Source: Dehalococcoidia bacterium (GTDB lineage Bacteria > Chloroflexota > Dehalococcoidia > Dehalococcoidales > RBG-16-60-22). From it: DNA of 64,000 nucleotides. The position numbers and the translations under genes were made by a program. Below are positions 18,603 to 29,690 of the stretch, one piece after another; the stretch's first letter is position 1, and every line of letters starts with the position of its first letter. The stretch spans positions 5,603 to 69,602 of the forward strand of contig DUFF01000069.1 of the NCBI GenBank assembly GCA_011174815.1, read 5' to 3'. The notes below the pieces were generated by a model. It made no database searches, was not told the origin of the DNA, and saw nothing but the letters and a program-made list of their open reading frames with translations.

Positions 18603-20213
18603 TCACCCCCACAGCTCTTCGATGTCCTTCTCCGCCTGTTTCCCGCCCTCTCCCTTTCCAGCGGCGAGAAATTCCTGATAGGACTGCGGCGAGCCGTACT
18701 CCCGCGTTCTGATGACCACCGGCATGGGTACAGCATGTCCGAAAATGAGCGCCTGCTGCTTTGACTCCAGCCGGGACAGCACCGATTTCAAAGCGCCTTT
18801 GCCGGAGACGCCGGCGAGGACGCTGTCAATGTCTCTCTCGTTATCGAGCAGGCAGGTGACTTTGGTGCCCATTTGGGACATCACCTCGGTGTCAATGCCG
18901 CTGGGACGCTGATCAATGACCAGCAGGGTCACATTGTATTTCCTCATCTCGCGGGCGATGGTGCCGAAAATGGTGCGGCCGGCAACCTCCGGATTGAGGA
19001 AGCGGTGTGCTTCCTCAATGGTGATGACCAGCGGCGTGGGCTTGACCGTAGCCTCACCCATCGCCTTCTCCATCCGCTCGCGGTACTGGGCATGGATGCG
19101 CCGCGTCAGCAGGTTGGCCACCAGAATGTAGGCAGTGATGTCCGTGTAGCGGCCGAACTCAAGGACCACGTTTATCCCCCGGTCAAGGTATTCCAGAATG
19201 CGTGTTACAGCATTGTCCGGCGCCTGTGGCTCGATAAAGGGGAGGCGGCCCACCGTGGCCAGACCCCTTTTCAAATTCTGGAAGGTGCTCTCGTGGATGG
19301 ATAGCTCTTTCAGTAGCTCGTTTGTCTCCTCGGAATCGGGCAGGTCAGCAGCCTGCCGCAGCCAGTCCCGGCCAAAACGGCGCCGCAGCTGGTAGATGGC
19401 CTCCACCGCCGGCTCGGTCAGGTTCAGGGTCTGGCGCAAAAGTGCCATGTCCTCCGGCTCAATCTCATCATAGCCTATCTTCACGACGAAGTCGGTGCTC
19501 ACCTTTCTCCGCCGCGAGCTTTCCTCATCAAGGGTGAACACGGCCACTTTTGACGGGAAAAGCTGTTTCAGCGCCTTGACTGACTTTCCCCCCTCGCTCG
19601 TCCCCGCCCAGCCGTACTCGTTGTGCATGTCGAAAATCAGATTCACCGCCGCGCTCTTCTGCAGCATGCCGATGAGCAGGATGCGGGTGAGAAACGTTTT
19701 GCCGGTGCCGCTCTTGCCGAAGATGCCGTTGGAGCGCTTGACCAGCTCCGGCAGGTCGAGGCATATCTTGGTCTCCATATCCAGCGGCGTGCCGACGTAA
19801 AATCTCTTTTCGTCCTCGCCGCCGAAGACGAGCTCCACATCCTGTTGCGAGGCCAGATTGACCGCCGAGAAGTGGCTGGGCACCGTCTTCACCGGCTGCG
19901 GCCCCTCAATCAGGGTGTCGACGTCGCCGCCGATGGTGAGCATGGGCAGAACGTGCAGGGTGCCGTAGGTGCCCGTTCCGGAGAGCACCTCGGCGATAAA
20001 GGGGTCGGAGATATCGGGCGGGGTCAGGGTGAAGCGCGGGTCGATGACGCCCAGGCCGATATCGGTAATCATGCCGAAGAACCTCTGCCTCTGCCCCTCG
20101 ATGGTGACGTATCTGCCCACCGCCATGTCCTCCACCGATACGCCGCCGTCCAGCTTAACCTCAACGCCGCTCTCCAGCGAGCCGGAGACCACAAGGCCCA
20201 GCCTGTCCGTCAT
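18603..20213 (-). CDS. herA: HerA/FtsK-class ATPase (HerA-like helicase; N-terminal HAS barrel plus P-loop)
   Basis: 536 aa. N-terminal barrel-like VGRYVTIEGQRQRFFGMITDI, Walker A GIFGKSGTGKTF, Walker B LVITIEEAHRF, and a QRPSGID arginine-finger region. The start overlaps the upstream gene's stop (ATGA). Confidence 0.8.
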   Translation of the reverse strand: MTDRLGLVVSGSLESGVEVKLDGGVSVEDMAVGRYVTIEGQRQRFFGMITDIGLGVIDPRFTLTPPDISDPFIAEVLSGTGTYGTLHVLPMLTIGGDVDTLIEGPQPVKTVPSHFSAVNLASQQDVELVFGGEDEKRFYVGTPLDMETKICLDLPELVKRSNGIFGKSGTGKTFLTRILLIGMLQKSAAVNLIFDMHNEYGWAGTSEGGKSVKALKQLFPSKVAVFTLDEESSRRRKVSTDFVVKIGYDEIEPEDMALLRQTLNLTEPAVEAIYQLRRRFGRDWLRQAADLPDSEETNELLKELSIHESTFQNLKRGLATVGRLPFIEPQAPDNAVTRILEYLDRGINVVLEFGRYTDITAYILVANLLTRRIHAQYRERMEKAMGEATVKPTPLVITIEEAHRFLNPEVAGRTIFGTIAREMRKYNVTLLVIDQRPSGIDTEVMSQMGTKVTCLLDNERDIDSVLAGVSGKGALKSVLSRLESKQQALIFGHAVPMPVVIRTREYGSPQSYQEFLAAGKGEGGKQAEKDIEELWG

Positions 20214-24007: not shown

Positions 24008-24928
24008 TTATACCTTGGCCAAGATTTCGTTAATCTCTTCATCGGTGAGCTTCACGTGCTCACCTTCCGCCAGTGATGCTTCAAAATCGCTGTGAAGGTT
24101 GAAGTCAAAAGTAATATCTCCGTCAGCGGGCATCCTTTGCCCAACGAAGGACTTAGTGGCAGGCCTGATGACCACATCCGGGTTATAGTCCCAGGCTATG
24201 TCATGTTGCCACTCCGGGTGTGCGCACAGGAAAATCAGTTTACCCCGATAGCCTGATGGTACACGAAACACGTTGGGTATAACCCAGTCAATTTTCAGGC
24301 CTACTTCTTCAAGAGCTGCCACAGCGTACATTTTCAGAATCCCGGGGTCGAAGTTTATCTCTACATTACAATGGACATGGTCAGCTGGAGACTCTTCAAT
24401 CAACCTGAGCCATTTTTTAAAATGGTCAGACTTGAAGTAGGCGCGTATTTCAGCTTCTTCGTGTGGTCCCACACATTTAAAATCAAACTGCTTGTAGTAT
24501 TCGTCCATGAACTTTTTGCTCCAGCCCCACACGTTATCTTCCTGGACGTCTTTGTACAGCGGAGTTTTATTCAGGTCTGCGTCTGGTCGAACTTCTGCCG
24601 GTGCTATAAGCACATCGGGATTGTAGAACCAAAATAATTCATAATTGGCCAGAAACCGGTGGGTCTTGGAATCTACGGGCTGAACATTGATGAACATGCC
24701 CACGCCGGGAAGACCAGAGAATTTAATACCTCGGTCTAGGACAACGCCCTTCAGCTCATGATATTTCGTAAAAAGCTTGGATAAAGACTCGGGATGGATA
24801 CTGTTTTCCACATATATGTGCATATGATACATCGGGTCATCAGTCTGGGTGAGCATATGCATAAACCTGTGCCACTGGTCTGATTTGAAATAGCCGGCGA
24901 TGCTCTCCACAATATTGTTTCTTACCAT
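24008..24928 (-). CDS. Hypothetical protein built from two homologous halves of about 150 aa
   Basis: The start at 24928 has the SD aaaggagatagaaca. The internal repeat is visible by eye: IAGYFKSDQWHRFMHML...HMHIYVE...FWFYNPDVLIAPAE versus IRAYFKSDHFKKWLRLI...HVHCNVE...AWDYNPDVVIRPAT. I do not recognise the family. Confidence 0.6.
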   Translation of the reverse strand: MVRNNIVESIAGYFKSDQWHRFMHMLTQTDDPMYHMHIYVENSIHPESLSKLFTKYHELKGVVLDRGIKFSGLPGVGMFINVQPVDSKTHRFLANYELFWFYNPDVLIAPAEVRPDADLNKTPLYKDVQEDNVWGWSKKFMDEYYKQFDFKCVGPHEEAEIRAYFKSDHFKKWLRLIEESPADHVHCNVEINFDPGILKMYAVAALEEVGLKIDWVIPNVFRVPSGYRGKLIFLCAHPEWQHDIAWDYNPDVVIRPATKSFVGQRMPADGDITFDFNLHSDFEASLAEGEHVKLTDEEINEILAKV

Positions 24929-25061
24929 TGTTCTATCTCCTTTTATCAATAAATAGTTGTGGTTTATTCACTTACTGGCACCTCTGGTCACCCCGCAACA
25001 TCAAAACACGGCCTAGCGATAGACACTTTAGCCAGTTGTATTACCTCCTGTCAAGTCCACT

Positions 25062-25069
25062 CAATTGTA
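25062..25069. repeat. Target-site duplication CAATTGTA (left copy)
   Basis: The identical 8-mer occurs at 27066-27073, immediately outside the inverted repeats. Confidence 0.8.
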
Positions 25070-25086
25070 GGCAAAGTACACTCTTT
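25070..25086. repeat. Left terminal inverted repeat of the IS
   Basis: ggcaaagtacactcttt. An adjacent 8-bp hairpin, cactcttt/aaagagtg, lies at 25080-25099. Confidence 0.8.
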
Positions 25087-25147
25087 CTTGTAAAGAGTGC
25101 CTAATAGGTATATACTGCCTATCAAATATATTGATAGGAGTTATCGT

Positions 25148-25708
25148 ATGCCTATTGAAGTCACAAGGATTATCTACGCAATACTGGTATTATTGTCACT
25201 CACCACGATATATATATTGGCGTTACGCATTGTCATTAAGATATTCTCCGTATTATTCCGATTGTTGTATAAAACTGCGTGGTTTAGAAGATTACTTTTT
25301 ATACTGCAAACTAAATTACAACAGGCAATTGATTATACTTCTCCATTTATTAGGCGATTGTGGAATCTTATCGAAGTACTTATTGACCCAGTATTTTACG
25401 GATATTCGATTGTTGCTGTTTACGATAGAGTGCAAGTTATCAATCAGTACGTACAAAACAATCCTCAGTACAAATTCTGGGACTTACTTGAGGCTAATAT
25501 GAATTATGATTTAAGTTTTTGGCTTGCATTTACTATTATTTTTACGCTCTGGTTTTTTGTGAGAGCCAATACACATATGAGTGATAAGATATTTCAGAAG
25601 AGAGTTCTAAAGAGTCTGAATAAATTGTCAGGTGAATCTGATGAGTTAGATATAGGGAAAATCAATAAAGAAATACGGGAACACTTAAGAAAGAGGAAAG
25701 AGAAATAA
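25148..25708 (+). CDS. IS passenger ORF: AT-rich membrane protein, unknown function
   Basis: ATG at 25148 with the SD taggag 7 nt upstream (the ORF track starts at 25097). It has TM helices and a basic C-terminus. The stop is 1 nt before the transposase start. Confidence 0.5.
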   Translation: MPIEVTRIIYAILVLLSLTTIYILALRIVIKIFSVLFRLLYKTAWFRRLLFILQTKLQQAIDYTSPFIRRLWNLIEVLIDPVFYGYSIVAVYDRVQVINQYVQNNPQYKFWDLLEANMNYDLSFWLAFTIIFTLWFFVRANTHMSDKIFQKRVLKSLNKLSGESDELDIGKINKEIREHLRKRKEK

Positions 25709-25709
25709 T

Positions 25710-26759
25710 ATGAGCTTCATACGAGCAAAAGAAATTCCGCCTGGTTCGGGTAACTGGTATGACTACGAAGTAATGACTATCCACAAAGGTAAAAAGGTCA
25801 TACAGAAGGTCATCCGTTATATTGGCAAATCCAGTTTGCGTTCTTCGCGTTCTATGCGTTCTGGTGGCAGTGTAGGTTCTTATCCGGCAGCCGTTTCGTC
25901 AGCATCAATAAGCCCTGTAGATGATGCTAAAATCCACAAAATGAAAACACCCGCCCGACAGATAGCTTCTGCTTTGGGTATGTACTATGGCGGTATGTCC
26001 CTAGATGCTATTCAACAGCAATTCAGGCAAGACTATGATACCGATATGAGTGAAAGCAATTACTGGAATTGGGTAAAGCGATTTACCAAGGAAGCTATAA
26101 AACAGACAAAGCATTTTAAGCCTGAAAATATAGGTGATACTTGGGTTGCCGATGAAACCTATATGAAGCTAGGGGATAAGACTGTTTACTTCTGGGATTT
26201 AATAGACTCAAAAACTAACTACCTTCTGGCTTCTCACGTCTCATTCAGCAGGGGAAGCAGGGAAGCAAAAGTCTTAATGAAGCTGGCAGAGCAGAGAGCG
26301 GGCAAAACGCCTAAAGTGGTAATAACCGATAAACTCAGGTCTTATGAAGTGGCGATAGAGGATGCCTTTGGTGCGGATACAAAGCATAAGCAAGGCGAGC
26401 CATTCAAGTTCAAGGTAAGTGGTACTTCCACAGCAGAGATAGAGCGGTTTCATAAGACACTGGAACAAAGAACAGACGTATTCCAGAAGTACAATGATAT
26501 TGAGACTATCAGGCTTTTAACTGATGGCTGGCTAATAAACTATAACTTCTTTAAGCAGAATGAAGGATGCGGGAATATCCCGCCAGCTCAGGCAGCAAGC
26601 AGCGTAGTACCCTTCAAAGACTGGAATGATGTAGTCATACCTGAAGGCGTTCACGATATTGACTACAAAGTAAGCCTGTATCGCAGGAAATCGGTTAAAA
26701 AGGGTAAGCCTGTTTTTGATGCTACACTAACGCCTATAGAAATTGACAAGGAGAAATAA
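25710..26759 (+). CDS. DDE transposase, IS6-family-like, with extended N-terminus
   Basis: 349 aa with WVADETYMKLGDKTVYFWDLID (D), VVITDKLRSYEVAI (D) and TAEIERFHKTLEQR (E). Confidence 0.75.
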   Translation: MSFIRAKEIPPGSGNWYDYEVMTIHKGKKVIQKVIRYIGKSSLRSSRSMRSGGSVGSYPAAVSSASISPVDDAKIHKMKTPARQIASALGMYYGGMSLDAIQQQFRQDYDTDMSESNYWNWVKRFTKEAIKQTKHFKPENIGDTWVADETYMKLGDKTVYFWDLIDSKTNYLLASHVSFSRGSREAKVLMKLAEQRAGKTPKVVITDKLRSYEVAIEDAFGADTKHKQGEPFKFKVSGTSTAEIERFHKTLEQRTDVFQKYNDIETIRLLTDGWLINYNFFKQNEGCGNIPPAQAASSVVPFKDWNDVVIPEGVHDIDYKVSLYRRKSVKKGKPVFDATLTPIEIDKEK

Positions 26760-26764
26760 TAGTT

Positions 26765-27046
26765 ATGGATAAAAAATTGAAATCAGAGGTAGATAGAGCT
26801 ATCCCAGAAGCAAACGAAATTTATGAATATATAAAGAGCAATTACGGTGACCAGCCGTGGATGGGTGATACAGAGAGGTTTATGGCTCTCACATTCCTAT
26901 CTACTCGTGATTTAGTAAAACATTCCATAGTTTTAACTGGTCTTACTAGATGGCTTAGAGGGCTTACGATAGTATTAGGTGTCTTGGCTTTAGCTCAGTT
27001 GGGTGTTCTGATATATCAGATTATCTATAGAGTGCCTAATGGCTAA
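26765..27046 (+). CDS. IS passenger ORF: small membrane-anchored protein, unknown function
   Basis: 93 aa with a C-terminal TM helix LTIVLGVLALAQLGVLIYQII. Ends 2 nt before IRR. Confidence 0.45.
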   Translation: MDKKLKSEVDRAIPEANEIYEYIKSNYGDQPWMGDTERFMALTFLSTRDLVKHSIVLTGLTRWLRGLTIVLGVLALAQLGVLIYQIIYRVPNG

Positions 27047-27048
27047 TC

Positions 27049-27065
27049 AAAGATTGTACTTTGCC
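27049..27065. repeat. Right terminal inverted repeat of the IS
   Basis: aaagattgtactttgcc, the reverse complement of IRL with one mismatch. Confidence 0.8.
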
Positions 27066-27073
27066 CAATTGTA
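27066..27073. repeat. Target-site duplication CAATTGTA (right copy)
   Basis: Direct repeat of 25062-25069. Confidence 0.8.
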
Positions 27074-27303
27074 AGTGCAGGGGACATGAATCGGAGCCGT
27101 TTCTGGCTAATAAGGTGAAAAAATGGCTGACGCGGCTTGGTGTGAAGACTTTGTTCATAGAACCGGGCAGTCCCTGGGAGAAGGTTATATTGAGTCATTT
27201 AATGGAAAGCTTCGGGATGAACTCTTGGGCCGGGAAATCTTTACGACTCTTGAGGAAGCCAAGGCCTTTGATGCCATCACTTGCTTTCTGTGTTGAAGCG
27301 TAA
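27074..27303 (+). pseudogene. Remnant of an rve (integrase-core) transposase, frameshifted and truncated
   Basis: FLANKVKKWLTRLGVKTLFIEPGSPWE, then after a 1-nt frame change GYIESFNGKLRDELLGREIFTTLEEAKA. This is the conserved C-terminal block of IS3-type integrase-core transposases. The N-terminal catalytic part is absent. Confidence 0.65.
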
Positions 27304-27360
27304 AAGGTGTGTTACCTCTGTTTTCTAGACTCATAAGAGCCGATATGTTTGGTAGCAGCA

Positions 27361-27741
27361 CTAGCGTACATGACATGTTGCAAACATAGCAGGAGGGCAT
27401 TGCCAGTTTCCAATCTTCTTGACATCCATCTTGAGTCTAGTACCATCTAAAGTCAACTGACCTTCAATGATGACTGAACGACATGGGCTAGCTCTCTCGG
27501 GTTTTTCATGCTGAGACTCATATATAACGTAACACGCATTGGCATTGTTCTCGATGCAATTGATCTTCCGGCCCTTTCTTGGACTTATAATGAAATACAG
27601 AGTCTTGCCGTCAAAGTGATGTTCAAGGGGCACAGCATAGGGCTTATCTCGGTCCACCAATGCAAGAACGCCTACCGGGCTGTCCTTTATAAATTTCATT
27701 ACTTCTAATTCGTCCATCGCTCCAACGCCTGTTGCAGTCAT
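27361..27741 (-). CDS. Pyridoxamine 5'-phosphate oxidase-family (FMN-binding split barrel) protein
   Basis: 126 aa with SPVGVLALVDRDKPYAVPLEHHFDGKTLYF. Strong SD (aaggaggt) before the ATG at 27741. Confidence 0.65.
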   Translation of the reverse strand: MTATGVGAMDELEVMKFIKDSPVGVLALVDRDKPYAVPLEHHFDGKTLYFIISPRKGRKINCIENNANACYVIYESQHEKPERASPCRSVIIEGQLTLDGTRLKMDVKKIGNWQCPPAMFATCHVR

Positions 27742-28490: not shown

Positions 28491-29690
28491 TTACACCCAC
28501 CTCGTCCTTTTGCTGAAGCTCTTGGCGGAGGTGAGGGTGGGGATTTTTTCCTCAATGCAGAGCGATTCCACCAGCTGCCAGAACTCGGCTTTATCGGCGG
28601 CGGTGACCACCGCCTGCTCGTGGGCCTCACTCAAGGCCACCGGGTAGCCCTGCCCTCGCCGGCACTGGTCCAGGGTTAAAGAATGCACCAAACCCAGCAA
28701 TTCATCATTTTCCGCTGCCCAGCGCGGCATCTCCACCCGCGCCACCTCTTCCTCCAGCCTTAGGTAAAAGAAATAGATACGGTGTTCCCCATAACGCTCT
28801 TTGGTTATTTTCGACGGGCTGATAAAAAGCGCCGACCTCTCACACGGTGTCAGCACGTCCATGAACAGCTCTCGGTCGGTGACCCCGGCCACGCCCTCGC
28901 AGTCGCGGTCTTTAGGCGGCGGGCAGAAGCGGTCGCAGTCTGACACCTCATGCGGGCATATCGCCACCCGCAGCACGTTGACCACGTCGGTGCTGCGCGG
29001 GAAGCTGATGTAACTAGCCAGCGCCACTTTTTTCTCACGGTTTTGTTTTCTGATTTCTTCAAAGCAGGGCAGATACCCGTTTCCCAGCAGCGCCTCGGTG
29101 ACGAAGTCAGGGTAAGCCTCCAGCCCCCAGAGAATCAAAGAGCCATCGAGCAGCGCCAGCGTAGCGCTTCCCGGCGGCTGTTCCGCCACCAGCCGGGACA
29201 GATGGCAGCATTCCTCAACAGCGCGCTTGATGCCAAGCAATGTTCCCTCTACCATCTGCTCGCGGCCGGTCGCTGCCGCCGGCTTCAGCACCAGGTCCTC
29301 ATCCTCGGCGTAGAGGTGCGGTGCGCTATCCAGAAAGGCGTCCGGCTGGTCACCATACCTGAGGGCAACGGAGCCGATGTTTATCAGATAGCACCGCGTG
29401 GAGCGGTGCCGGTCGACGTCAATGTGAGAGCCATCGGTGGCGAGCACGCTGAAATCGGTGGGGGCGGGGGGTGCCGAATATCGTTTTGACAGCCCGTCCG
29501 TAAGTTCTGCCACCAGCCAGGTGGTGCGGCTGGCGGCGATTTTCCTTTTTAGCTTCTCCAGGTCAATGGCCTCGTCGCCGAGAACCTGCCGCGCATAATG
29601 AAACCGCTGCTGTCTTTCGGTGCGCCCTTCCTTCAGCCGAGCCACCATAAGGCTCGCCTGCGAGGCTATCTTGGTTAAATCCAGTGACAC
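28491..29690 (-). CDS. nurA: NurA-domain nuclease
   Basis: 399 aa with a GTG start after ggagaaggag. Has the two DGS motifs characteristic of NurA: VLATDGSHIDV and LALLDGSLILWG. Confidence 0.65.
   Translation of the reverse strand: MSLDLTKIASQASLMVARLKEGRTERQQRFHYARQVLGDEAIDLEKLKRKIAASRTTWLVAELTDGLSKRYSAPPAPTDFSVLATDGSHIDVDRHRSTRCYLINIGSVALRYGDQPDAFLDSAPHLYAEDEDLVLKPAAATGREQMVEGTLLGIKRAVEECCHLSRLVAEQPPGSATLALLDGSLILWGLEAYPDFVTEALLGNGYLPCFEEIRKQNREKKVALASYISFPRSTDVVNVLRVAICPHEVSDCDRFCPPPKDRDCEGVAGVTDRELFMDVLTPCERSALFISPSKITKERYGEHRIYFFYLRLEEEVARVEMPRWAAENDELLGLVHSLTLDQCRRGQGYPVALSEAHEQAVVTAADKAEFWQLVESLCIEEKIPTLTSAKSFSKRTRWV

Follow-up and report, generated by a model that had tools for sequence, protein, structure and literature searches.

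A three-gene IS6-like element from Dehalococcoidia with a conserved backbone and apparently exchangeable gene modules

This work concerns an IS6-like insertion sequence (IS) that lies in a 64-kb stretch of DNA from a Dehalococcoidia (Chloroflexota) genome. The whole stretch is referred to below as the window, and all coordinates refer to it unless a related locus is named. The element occupies positions 25070-27065, is 1,996 bp long, and is intact in the sense that every one of its parts is complete. It has terminal inverted repeats (IRs) that match at 16 of 17 positions, a perfect 8-bp target-site duplication, and three open reading frames (ORFs) on the same strand within the IRs. A transposase gene, tnp, is flanked by an upstream gene, orfA, and a downstream gene, orfC, with a gap of 1 nt between orfA and tnp and of 5 nt between tnp and orfC. 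All of these features are found exactly where the initial annotation had placed them. The features of the element are:

25062..25069, no strand: left target-site duplication, 8 bp, CAATTGTA, identical to 27066-27073
25070..25086, + strand: left inverted repeat (IR-L), 17 bp, GGCAAAGTACACTCTTT, with the 14-bp core GGCAAAGTACACTC carrying G1, G2 and G7
25079..25099, + strand: left-end stem-loop, CACTCTTT pairing with AAAGAGTG, which joins the inner part of IR-L to the subterminal motif; part of a fold of -26.6 kcal/mol (z = -3.8)
25088..25116, + strand: putative sigma-70-type promoter, -35 box TTGTAA, 17-nt spacer, -10 box TATACT, 9/12 match
25094..25104, + strand: left subterminal motif AGAGTGCCTAA, in the spacer of the putative promoter
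25118..25138, + strand: 5'-leader hairpin, CCUAUCAA pairing with UUGAUAGG (-9.1 kcal/mol, z = -2.4)
25148..25708, + strand: orfA, the upstream module, 186-aa helical membrane protein with two to three transmembrane (TM) segments and a charged C-terminal helix, from hydropathy and homologues
25710..26759, + strand: tnp, 349-aa DDE transposase, from Pfam, NCBIfam and an alignment of relatives
26765..27046, + strand: orfC, the downstream module, 93-aa tail-anchored membrane protein with one C-terminal TM segment, from hydropathy and homologues
27029..27039, + strand: right subterminal motif AGAGTGCCTAA, a direct repeat (D1) with the left motif
27049..27065, - strand: right inverted repeat (IR-R), GGCAAAGTACAATCTTT read inward, 16/17 match to IR-L
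27066..27073, no strand: right target-site duplication, 8 bp, CAATTGTA

Both ends of the element read GGCAAAGTACA(C/A)TC, and with their GG start and a G at position 7 they follow the terminal-repeat rule of the IS6 family (PMC6807381). In shuffles, the IR pattern is expected by chance 0.15 times, and no second copy or fragment of the element was found in the 64 kb. The two repeats disagree only at position 12, where the left one has C and the right one A. The same left and right variants are kept across the relatives described below (CACTC at the left end in 35 of 50, CAATC at the right end in 70 of 75), so the mismatch is, judging by these counts, a conserved asymmetry of the two ends and not decay. 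About 25 nt inside both ends, nearly all relatives carry the subterminal motif TTAGGCAC(TCT), also written TTAGGCACTCT. At the right it is found in essentially every end, 16-27 nt from the tip, and we infer that it may be a binding or autoregulatory site of the transposase. The orientation of the left-end motif varies, being inverted as in the window in 35 elements and forming a true inverted repeat in 11, with a single orientation at the right end in all examined. The right-end motif, GAGAGTGCCTAA, also encodes the last codons and stop (..ESA*) of the final ORF, whether this is the transposase or a cargo gene. The window element uses a different frame of it (RVPNG*), as do the transposases of L005, L080 and L095, so that the last codons of orfC are supplied by the conserved end of the element itself. 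The base composition of the element (39% GC, and 33% in orfA) is set against 54% GC for the window.

The transposase begins with a beta-domain (residues 1-40), followed by a Ser-rich linker in place of a zinc finger (41-75), a helix plus helix-turn-helix region (H-HTH, about 76-135), a DDE core with D148, D207 and E245, and a conserved C-terminal tail (about 300-345). This architecture matches that of the "long" bacterial IS6-like transposases of the literature. Its IS6-like character, as first proposed, is borne out by several findings. The Pfam domain DDE_Tnp_IS240 (PF13610) covers residues 144-279 (4e-16, 59.9 bits against a cut-off of 27), and the best NCBIfam transposase model is IS6 (NF033587), which matches residues 77-282 with 108 bits. 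The best annotated relatives on plasmids are labelled "IS6-like element ISCpe7 family transposase" (30.6% identity over residues 78-296, E = 1e-15 by tblastn), and the G1/G2/G7 repeats and the 8-bp duplication point the same way. A database search returned 907 homologues, the best 120 of which are 67-99% identical and about 340-376 aa long. All source names that bear a taxon are Chloroflexota, Dehalococcoidia or Dehalococcoidales. An alignment of 14 relatives shows no variation at the catalytic residues D148, D207 and E245; also invariant are the N-terminal stretch MSFIRAKEIPPxSGNWYDYEV... and the C-terminal tail, both of which lie beyond the IS6 model. In place of the linker, a CxxC...CxxC zinc finger is found in some relatives (P0048, L041). 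A sequence search of the PDB with the transposase profile gave no match.

The two flanking genes are the unusual part of the element. Relatives of orfA are rare: four were found among 5.8 billion clustered proteins, also with a profile as the query, and two more in the loci fetched for this study. The resulting family of seven is located directly upstream of an IS6-like tnp in seven cases of seven, and no other setting was found. The homologues are 31-74% identical and share the motifs YEVLxDPxFYGYA and NPQYKFW, and against the 64%-identical homologue L041 the ratio of nonsynonymous to synonymous substitution rates (dN/dS) is 0.31. An alternative GTG start at 25097 would lengthen the orfA product to 203 aa. 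For orfC, 16 homologue clusters were found among 1.84 billion representatives. Their members are 69-102 aa long, most of them about 90-100. HS(I)xLTxLTRWL is a motif conserved among them, and a C-terminal TM segment is present in all except one truncated-looking sequence. Shine-Dalgarno sequences precede both genes. The initial claim of two extra membrane-protein ORFs can thus be upheld in a stronger form, as the dN/dS of orfA and the homologue clusters of orfC indicate that both are real genes. So can the view that they have no recognisable function, since neither matched Pfam, NCBIfam, PADLOC or PHROGs. A 14-nt repeat, AA(A/G)GAGAAATAATA, is seen at both gene junctions (25697-25710 and 26748-26761), where it spans the last codons (..KEK, stop) of orfA and tnp; its purine-rich part is read as a putative ribosome-binding site of the next gene.

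To place the element among its relatives, 110 loci were collected from scans of genome and metagenome contigs. They include 26 distinct complete elements, the one in the window among them, all with duplications matching at 8 of 8 positions and with lengths of 1,713-3,009 bp, from Dehalococcoidia metagenome-assembled genomes (MAGs) and metagenomes. In three further elements the duplication matches at 7 of 8. More distant members of the clade have transposases that are 38-48% identical and ends of the form GGTTCTTGCAACTT or GGCACTTGTAAC, close to the consensus GGTTCTGTTGCAAA of the IS26 group (PMC6807381); three of the four examined (L019, L021, L022) have perfect 8-bp duplications. No relative was found in viral contigs.

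The arrangement of genes in these elements is remarkably regular. Of 50 distinct left halves, 48 have an ORF of 100 aa or more in the stretch from the left end to tnp. A TM segment is nearly always predicted for it, and in at least 35 of the 50 the ORF is separated from tnp by -4 to +12 nt, frequently overlapping it as ATGA. Gaps of 77-190 nt, or upstream ORFs that are small or degenerate, are seen in a few elements, and four elements carry two upstream modules. The region downstream of tnp consists either of some 40-50 nt or of one more gene, which may encode a small TM protein, an N6/N4 DNA methyltransferase (three cases, one of them fused to an Mrr-like domain, Mrr_cat) or a LAPAL-family protein. 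When 59 cargo proteins were compared with Pfam, NCBIfam, PADLOC and PHROGs, only the methyltransferases, one Mrr-like domain, two LAPAL proteins and a nested IS1182 could be named. The methyltransferase genes are found in the downstream slots of L003 (2888-4132), L010 (4056-5504) and L076 (4066-5661), the last being the one fused to the Mrr-like nuclease domain. The LAPAL-motif protein (NCBIfam NF053583, a putative phage structural protein) occupies the upstream slot of L062 (2105-2989) and the downstream slot of L006 (4037-4930). The IS1182-family transposase gene is nested in the upstream region of one element (L113, 845-2212).

The upstream ORFs fall into 23 BLAST clusters, the largest of which holds 17 of 49, and a profile of this largest cluster recruits only one further ORF, so that the clusters stay separate. 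The similarity of the upstream ORFs does not follow that of the transposases. The window element and L041 agree at 64% in the upstream ORF and at 43% in tnp, whereas the values for the window and L053 are 40% and 77%; L021 and L007 show 44% and 38%, and L007 and L056 have essentially no similarity in the upstream ORF with 86% in tnp. The discordance of the two similarities indicates that modules have been swapped between backbones. The breakpoints can be seen at the nucleotide level. L055 and L056, whose transposases are 89% identical, share about 90% nucleotide identity over nt 1-45, drop to background from just past the -10 box to the ATG of tnp, and then return to about 90%. The window element and L046 have the same breakpoints, with identity falling back to background downstream of tnp. 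Over nt 1-45 the compared pairs are 80-90% identical.

These comparisons outline a common backbone, made of about 45 bp of left end (IR-L, subterminal motif and -10 box), tnp, and about 40 bp of right end (subterminal motif and IR-R). The upstream slot of this backbone essentially always holds a gene for what is predicted to be a membrane-anchored protein, and the optional downstream slot is either empty or occupied by a gene for a small TM protein, a DNA methyltransferase or a LAPAL-family protein. Had other copies been expected to carry the same two passengers, this would be true only in part: the slots are kept and orfA homologues sit at the same position in six other elements, but the genes otherwise differ. 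The exchange itself probably took place by homologous or illegitimate recombination between backbones. Two other explanations were considered and ruled out. The upstream ORFs are not one fast-evolving family, given that the clusters do not merge on profile iteration, the breakpoints are sharp and some of the ORFs are more conserved than tnp. A programmed frameshift joining the upstream ORF to tnp does not fit gaps that vary between -4, -1, 0, 1, 3, 10 and 12 nt.

Several loci hold derivatives of these elements. The upstream membrane-protein gene is retained in the non-autonomous derivatives L023 (2014-3218), L024 (3001-3221) and L025 (3001-3230). What is left of the transposase in L024 and L025 is residues 1-41 joined in frame to the conserved C-terminal tail, an arrangement suggesting that the N- and C-terminal extensions make up a single small domain; the remnant is possibly a DNA-binding or inhibitor mini-protein. 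In L005 (1676-4074), a 462-bp mini-element with both IRs and a 105-aa two-TM ORF, and no tnp, stands in tandem with a full element of 1,929 bp, and the identical 8 bp CAATCACG are found before, between and after the two. By analogy with IS26, this could be a trace of tandem or translocatable-unit chemistry. Two members of the clade with different cargo are present in one MAG in the cases of L005 and L010 (on a single 97-kb contig), L013/L014 and L007/L011. Such differently loaded pairs in single MAGs speak for a clade that is active, or once was, and diversifies inside genomes.

The left end may also hold the means of expression. Of 50 relatives, 36 have a TATACT or TATAAT box spaced from IR-L just as in the window, and the promoter of IS26 is likewise located in the left end (PMC7986276). 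Downstream of the putative -10 box, the 3' arm of the leader hairpin overlaps the Shine-Dalgarno sequence of orfA (AGGAG, 25136-25140). The stability of the leader depends on where the RNA begins: from the IR, the whole leader folds with -26.6 kcal/mol (z = -3.8), and from 25120 the fold is lost (-2.9 kcal/mol, z = 0.1). Comparable hairpins were found in 20 hand-picked relatives, with 18 different arm sequences, and in 19 of the 20 they start between -1 and +3 nt past the -10 box. Among 36 leaders the mean was -8.9 kcal/mol with the full arm and -3.0 kcal/mol from a start 7 nt past the -10 box. RNAalifold gave no consensus on the 20 leaders, whose loop lengths differ and whose stems were put out of register by MAFFT; folds of the individual sequences with a permutation control, which are weaker evidence, were used in its place. 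No terminator-like site was found within the element and no Rfam match in 24800-27400.

Put together, these features would make up the following scheme. The three genes would form one operon, transcribed from the left-end promoter TTGTAA-17-TATACT, and with the subterminal motif in the spacer of that promoter the transposase could repress its own operon. The element's own transcript would start within the 5' arm of the hairpin, leaving the ribosome-binding site free, and RNA reading through from outside would fold the hairpin and hide the site. By this analogy the leader hairpin would be a guard against read-through transcription, following the logic of fold-back inhibition in IS10 and IS50, which was reportedly described for read-through transcripts of these elements by Davis, Simons and Kleckner in 1985 and by Krebs and Reznikoff in 1986. 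Translation of tnp and orfC would proceed by termination-reinitiation coupling over the gaps of 1 and 5 nt. The DDE transposase would bind the GG-ended repeats, and copy-in insertion in the style of IS6 would generate the 8-bp duplication. The orfA and orfC products would be cargo with a membrane-associated role, not core proteins of transposition.

The surrounding DNA is chromosomal, with neighbouring genes for a HAD hydrolase, an SDR, a cyclase, a PNPOx-like protein, NurA, a HerA-like protein, LysE and a deacetylase. The reconstruction of the empty site that the initial annotation had called for worked to the extent that removing the element in silico joins the flanks (...GTCCACTCAATTGTAAGTGCAGGGG...), but no gene is restored. 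Just outside the right end lies the following feature, so that the IS6-like element inserted at the edge of an older, decayed IS:

27076..27296, + strand: frameshifted C-terminal piece of an older rve_3 (IS3/IS481-like) transposase, Pfam rve_3 2.4e-13

The HerA-like gene (DUF87 plus HAS barrel, 18603-20213) and NurA (28491-29690), which are usually neighbours, are on the same strand about 8 kb apart, with metabolic genes and the IS between them. The best promoter-like match of the region (25054-25025, minus strand, TTGACA-18-TAAAGT, 10/12) points toward a divergent gene of 313 aa (24008-24949); it lies 16 nt outside IR-L and was therefore spared by the insertion.

The reading that we consider probable is that the window holds an intact, apparently single-copy IS6-type element with passenger genes, a tIS in the terms of ISfinder, belonging to a long-transposase clade specific to Dehalococcoidia, with replaceable modules and with control by an operon and a leader hairpin. 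A number of points weigh against it. The 108 bits of the transposase stay below the NCBIfam IS6 equivalog cut-off of 125, a score that marks it as a divergent branch of IS6. The AlphaFold models are of low confidence: that of orfA is all-helical with a predicted local distance difference test (pLDDT) score of 53, and that of tnp is poor (pLDDT 45) and gives no more than a hint of an N-terminal sheet of three strands, an H-HTH, an RNase-H-like core and strands at the C-terminus. The promoter match in the window, taken alone, is no better than chance; the set used for the hairpin comparison was picked by hand, and only 13 of the 36 leaders reach z < -2. Cointegrate formation is assumed from knowledge of the family alone, with the L005 tandem as its only hint. 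The same insertion, with 1-2 single-nucleotide polymorphisms (SNPs), is present in every assembly that has the locus (nine samples or more, on contigs as long as 211 kb), and the element, fixed and single-copy at the locus, may no longer be active. Finally, an upstream gene so universal and so tightly coupled could serve transposition or its control and be more than mere cargo.

This last point can be developed into a full alternative, in which the upstream gene is a partner of the transposase, either a membrane tether or a regulator whose translation gates transposase synthesis. The filling of the slot in 48 of 50 left halves and the coupling in at least 35 agree with such a role, as do the retention of the upstream gene in the non-autonomous deletion derivatives L023, L024 and L028, the lack of any minimal element without it among the relatives seen, and the confinement of the orfA family to the upstream slot. 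There is also a parallel in IS6 clade VIII, the ISTet2 group, whose long transposases have a fused N-terminal extension with a signal peptide (PMC6807381). A dedicated partner is hard to reconcile with a slot filled from at least 20 unrelated clusters that differ in fold (helical or beta-rich C-terminal domains) and have no conserved motif in common, with a LAPAL-family protein that is found in either slot, and with the gaps of 77-190 nt and the small or degenerate ORFs of some elements. We hold this alternative to be unlikely. The many unrelated slot families argue that the extra genes are dispensable for transposition, as far as can be judged from sequence comparison, while the near-universal occupancy and the coupling urge caution.

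The element might also be an immobile relic that was acquired once and is now fixed, its ORFs kept by chance or for a host function. The intact duplication had initially been taken to argue for a recent insertion, and that claim is not borne out: besides the near-identical filled sites just mentioned, no empty site was found in a search via the neighbouring PNPOx-like gene, which returned filled sites only and one ambiguous contig ending at the IS boundary. What the intact duplication and the foreign composition show is a clean horizontal acquisition, not its recency. The single copy in the window, the occupation of the same site in at least nine assemblies from different samples and the missing empty site are all what a relic would give. 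But the three ORFs, the DDE triad, both IRs and the duplication are all intact; near-identical sampled genomes represent one population and say nothing of an old insertion; the contrast of 39% and 54% GC speaks against long residence; and relatives are present as two differently loaded copies per MAG. A relic therefore looks quite improbable. The idea that orfA and orfC are chance ORFs in an AT-rich spacer is effectively refuted. That neither gene has a database family would agree with it, and the low GC content (33-38%) gives it little support, since this lowers the likelihood of long ORFs and does not raise it. The homologues of orfA at 31-74% identity with their conserved motifs and a dN/dS of 0.31, the 16 clusters of orfC homologues with the HS(I)xLTxLTRWL motif and TM tail, and the Shine-Dalgarno sequences and tight spacing of both genes all stand against it.

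If we return to the probable reading, of a tIS with replaceable modules, a bolder version can be put forward, though only tentatively. The Dehalococcoidia clade may be a one-cassette expression platform, in which the 45-bp promoter end and tnp bracket an obligatory slot for swapped, fast-diverging membrane genes, each with a hairpin that sequesters its ribosome-binding site, and in which the transposase is made only by coupling. If this were true, transposition would be tied to the expression of hypervariable membrane cargo, possibly with functions in defence, exclusion or addiction. We know of no IS family for which such a linkage has been described. More generally, IS6/IS26 elements are the textbook case of a simple IS, and those with passenger genes are seen here to form a large and diverse clade. 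In Dehalococcoidia of the subsurface and of sediments, it numbers over 900 transposase homologues and dozens of elements with defined ends, and the family architecture is extended to a fixed backbone with exchangeable gene modules, DNA methyltransferases included. The ends GG(C/T)AAAGT(A/T)CA together with the TTAGGCAC motif provide a signature for annotation. The clade also represents a pool of rapidly diversifying, IS-borne membrane proteins in organisms that are important for organohalide respiration and subsurface carbon cycling, and a natural system for examining how translational coupling and leader structure may restrain a transposase.

How does the element compare with known systems? 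Members of the IS6 family are described as simple: they measure about 0.8 kb, contain one ORF, have their promoter in the left end and generate an 8-bp duplication. A few longer ones measure 1.23-1.76 kb (PMC7986276). The initial annotation had used the 0.8-kb type as its yardstick. The element is indeed unlike it, although the right comparators are the long IS6-like elements of 1.2-1.76 kb with transposases of 320-450 aa. With 1,996 bp and three ORFs it falls outside the "one ORF, 0.7-0.9 kb" description of IS6 elements (longest listed 1.71-1.76 kb), as the clade does with its 1.7-3.0 kb. The strict IS6/IS26 group is characterized by a transposase of about 210-255 aa with H-HTH and by the 14-bp consensus GGTTCTGTTGCAAA, with which the IR in the window shares only G1, G2, G7 and a few other positions; the 349-aa transposase, with its N- and C-terminal extensions, lies outside that range. 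Harmer and Hall (2019) excluded long bacterial transposases from the strict IS6/IS26 family, and their membership is disputed (PMC6807381). The placement of the transposase within IS6 thus holds in the ISfinder sense and not in the strict sense of Harmer and Hall: by its sequence features, the element is a member of the IS6 superfamily and not of the strict IS26 group. The transposase is on a divergent, long-transposase branch, with ISCpe7 as the closest annotated relative and ISDsp3 as the closest in architecture.

With the IS26/IS6 core the element has in common the DDE_Tnp_IS240 domain, the G1/G2/G7 repeats, the 8-bp duplication and a promoter in the left end, putative here. The core elements, in contrast, are 0.7-0.9 kb long with a single transposase of 210-255 aa. 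They lack a subterminal motif and a coupled upstream gene, and nothing is carried within their IRs; their cargo is instead moved between two copies of the IS, in pseudo-compound transposons or translocatable units. The ISCpe7 group, long clostridial IS6-like elements (clade VII of Harmer and Hall; clade h of Varani et al.), is similar in its 340-350-aa transposases with an N-terminal extension and in its 8-bp duplication. It differs in its size of 1.2-1.35 kb, its single ORF and its intact zinc finger, which is degenerate in the window element and kept only in some members of its clade, P0048 and L041 among them. The alignment with ISCpe7 leaves out the N-terminal MSFIRAKEIPP..GNWYDYEV beta-domain and the C-terminal tail of the window transposase, and the terminal repeats of the group seldom begin with GG (PMC6807381).

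Two further systems are comparable in their logic only. In IS10 and IS50, as would be the case here, a leader hairpin masks the ribosome-binding site only in RNAs begun upstream of the element's own transcription start. These IS families are unrelated, however, and here the guarded gene would be cargo, on which the transposase would depend through coupling. Integron cassettes offer an analogy of a fixed, promoter-bearing platform with a slot for interchangeable, promoterless single-gene modules of diverse function, with the difference that there is no integrase, attC or attI here and that one upstream module is the rule.

The closest counterpart is ISDsp3 of Dehalococcoides sp. BAV1 (NC_009455), the sole IS6-family member recorded with a passenger gene (PMC7986276). 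A full-text search of the literature for IS6 together with Dehalococcoides or Dehalococcoidia gave only the review PMC7986276. As far as the literature was searched, the architecture of the clade, with its backbone, always-filled and coupled upstream slot, optional downstream slot and exchange of modules, is new. ISDsp3 is known here by description only, and by that description it resembles the window element in having a passenger (a hypothetical protein), in coming from the same class, in its 8-bp duplication, in a long transposase without an intact zinc finger, and in imperfect IRs (28/36) that are compatible with an IR plus subterminal motif (PMC7986276, PMC6807381). It differs in being 1,456 bp long, with a 319-aa transposase and one passenger, against 1,996 bp, 349 aa and two in the window. 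Extra genes lie between the IRs here (orfA and orfC) and in all relatives, as is characteristic of a tIS. The most fitting description of the element is that of a tIS like ISDsp3 whose cargo modules can be exchanged.

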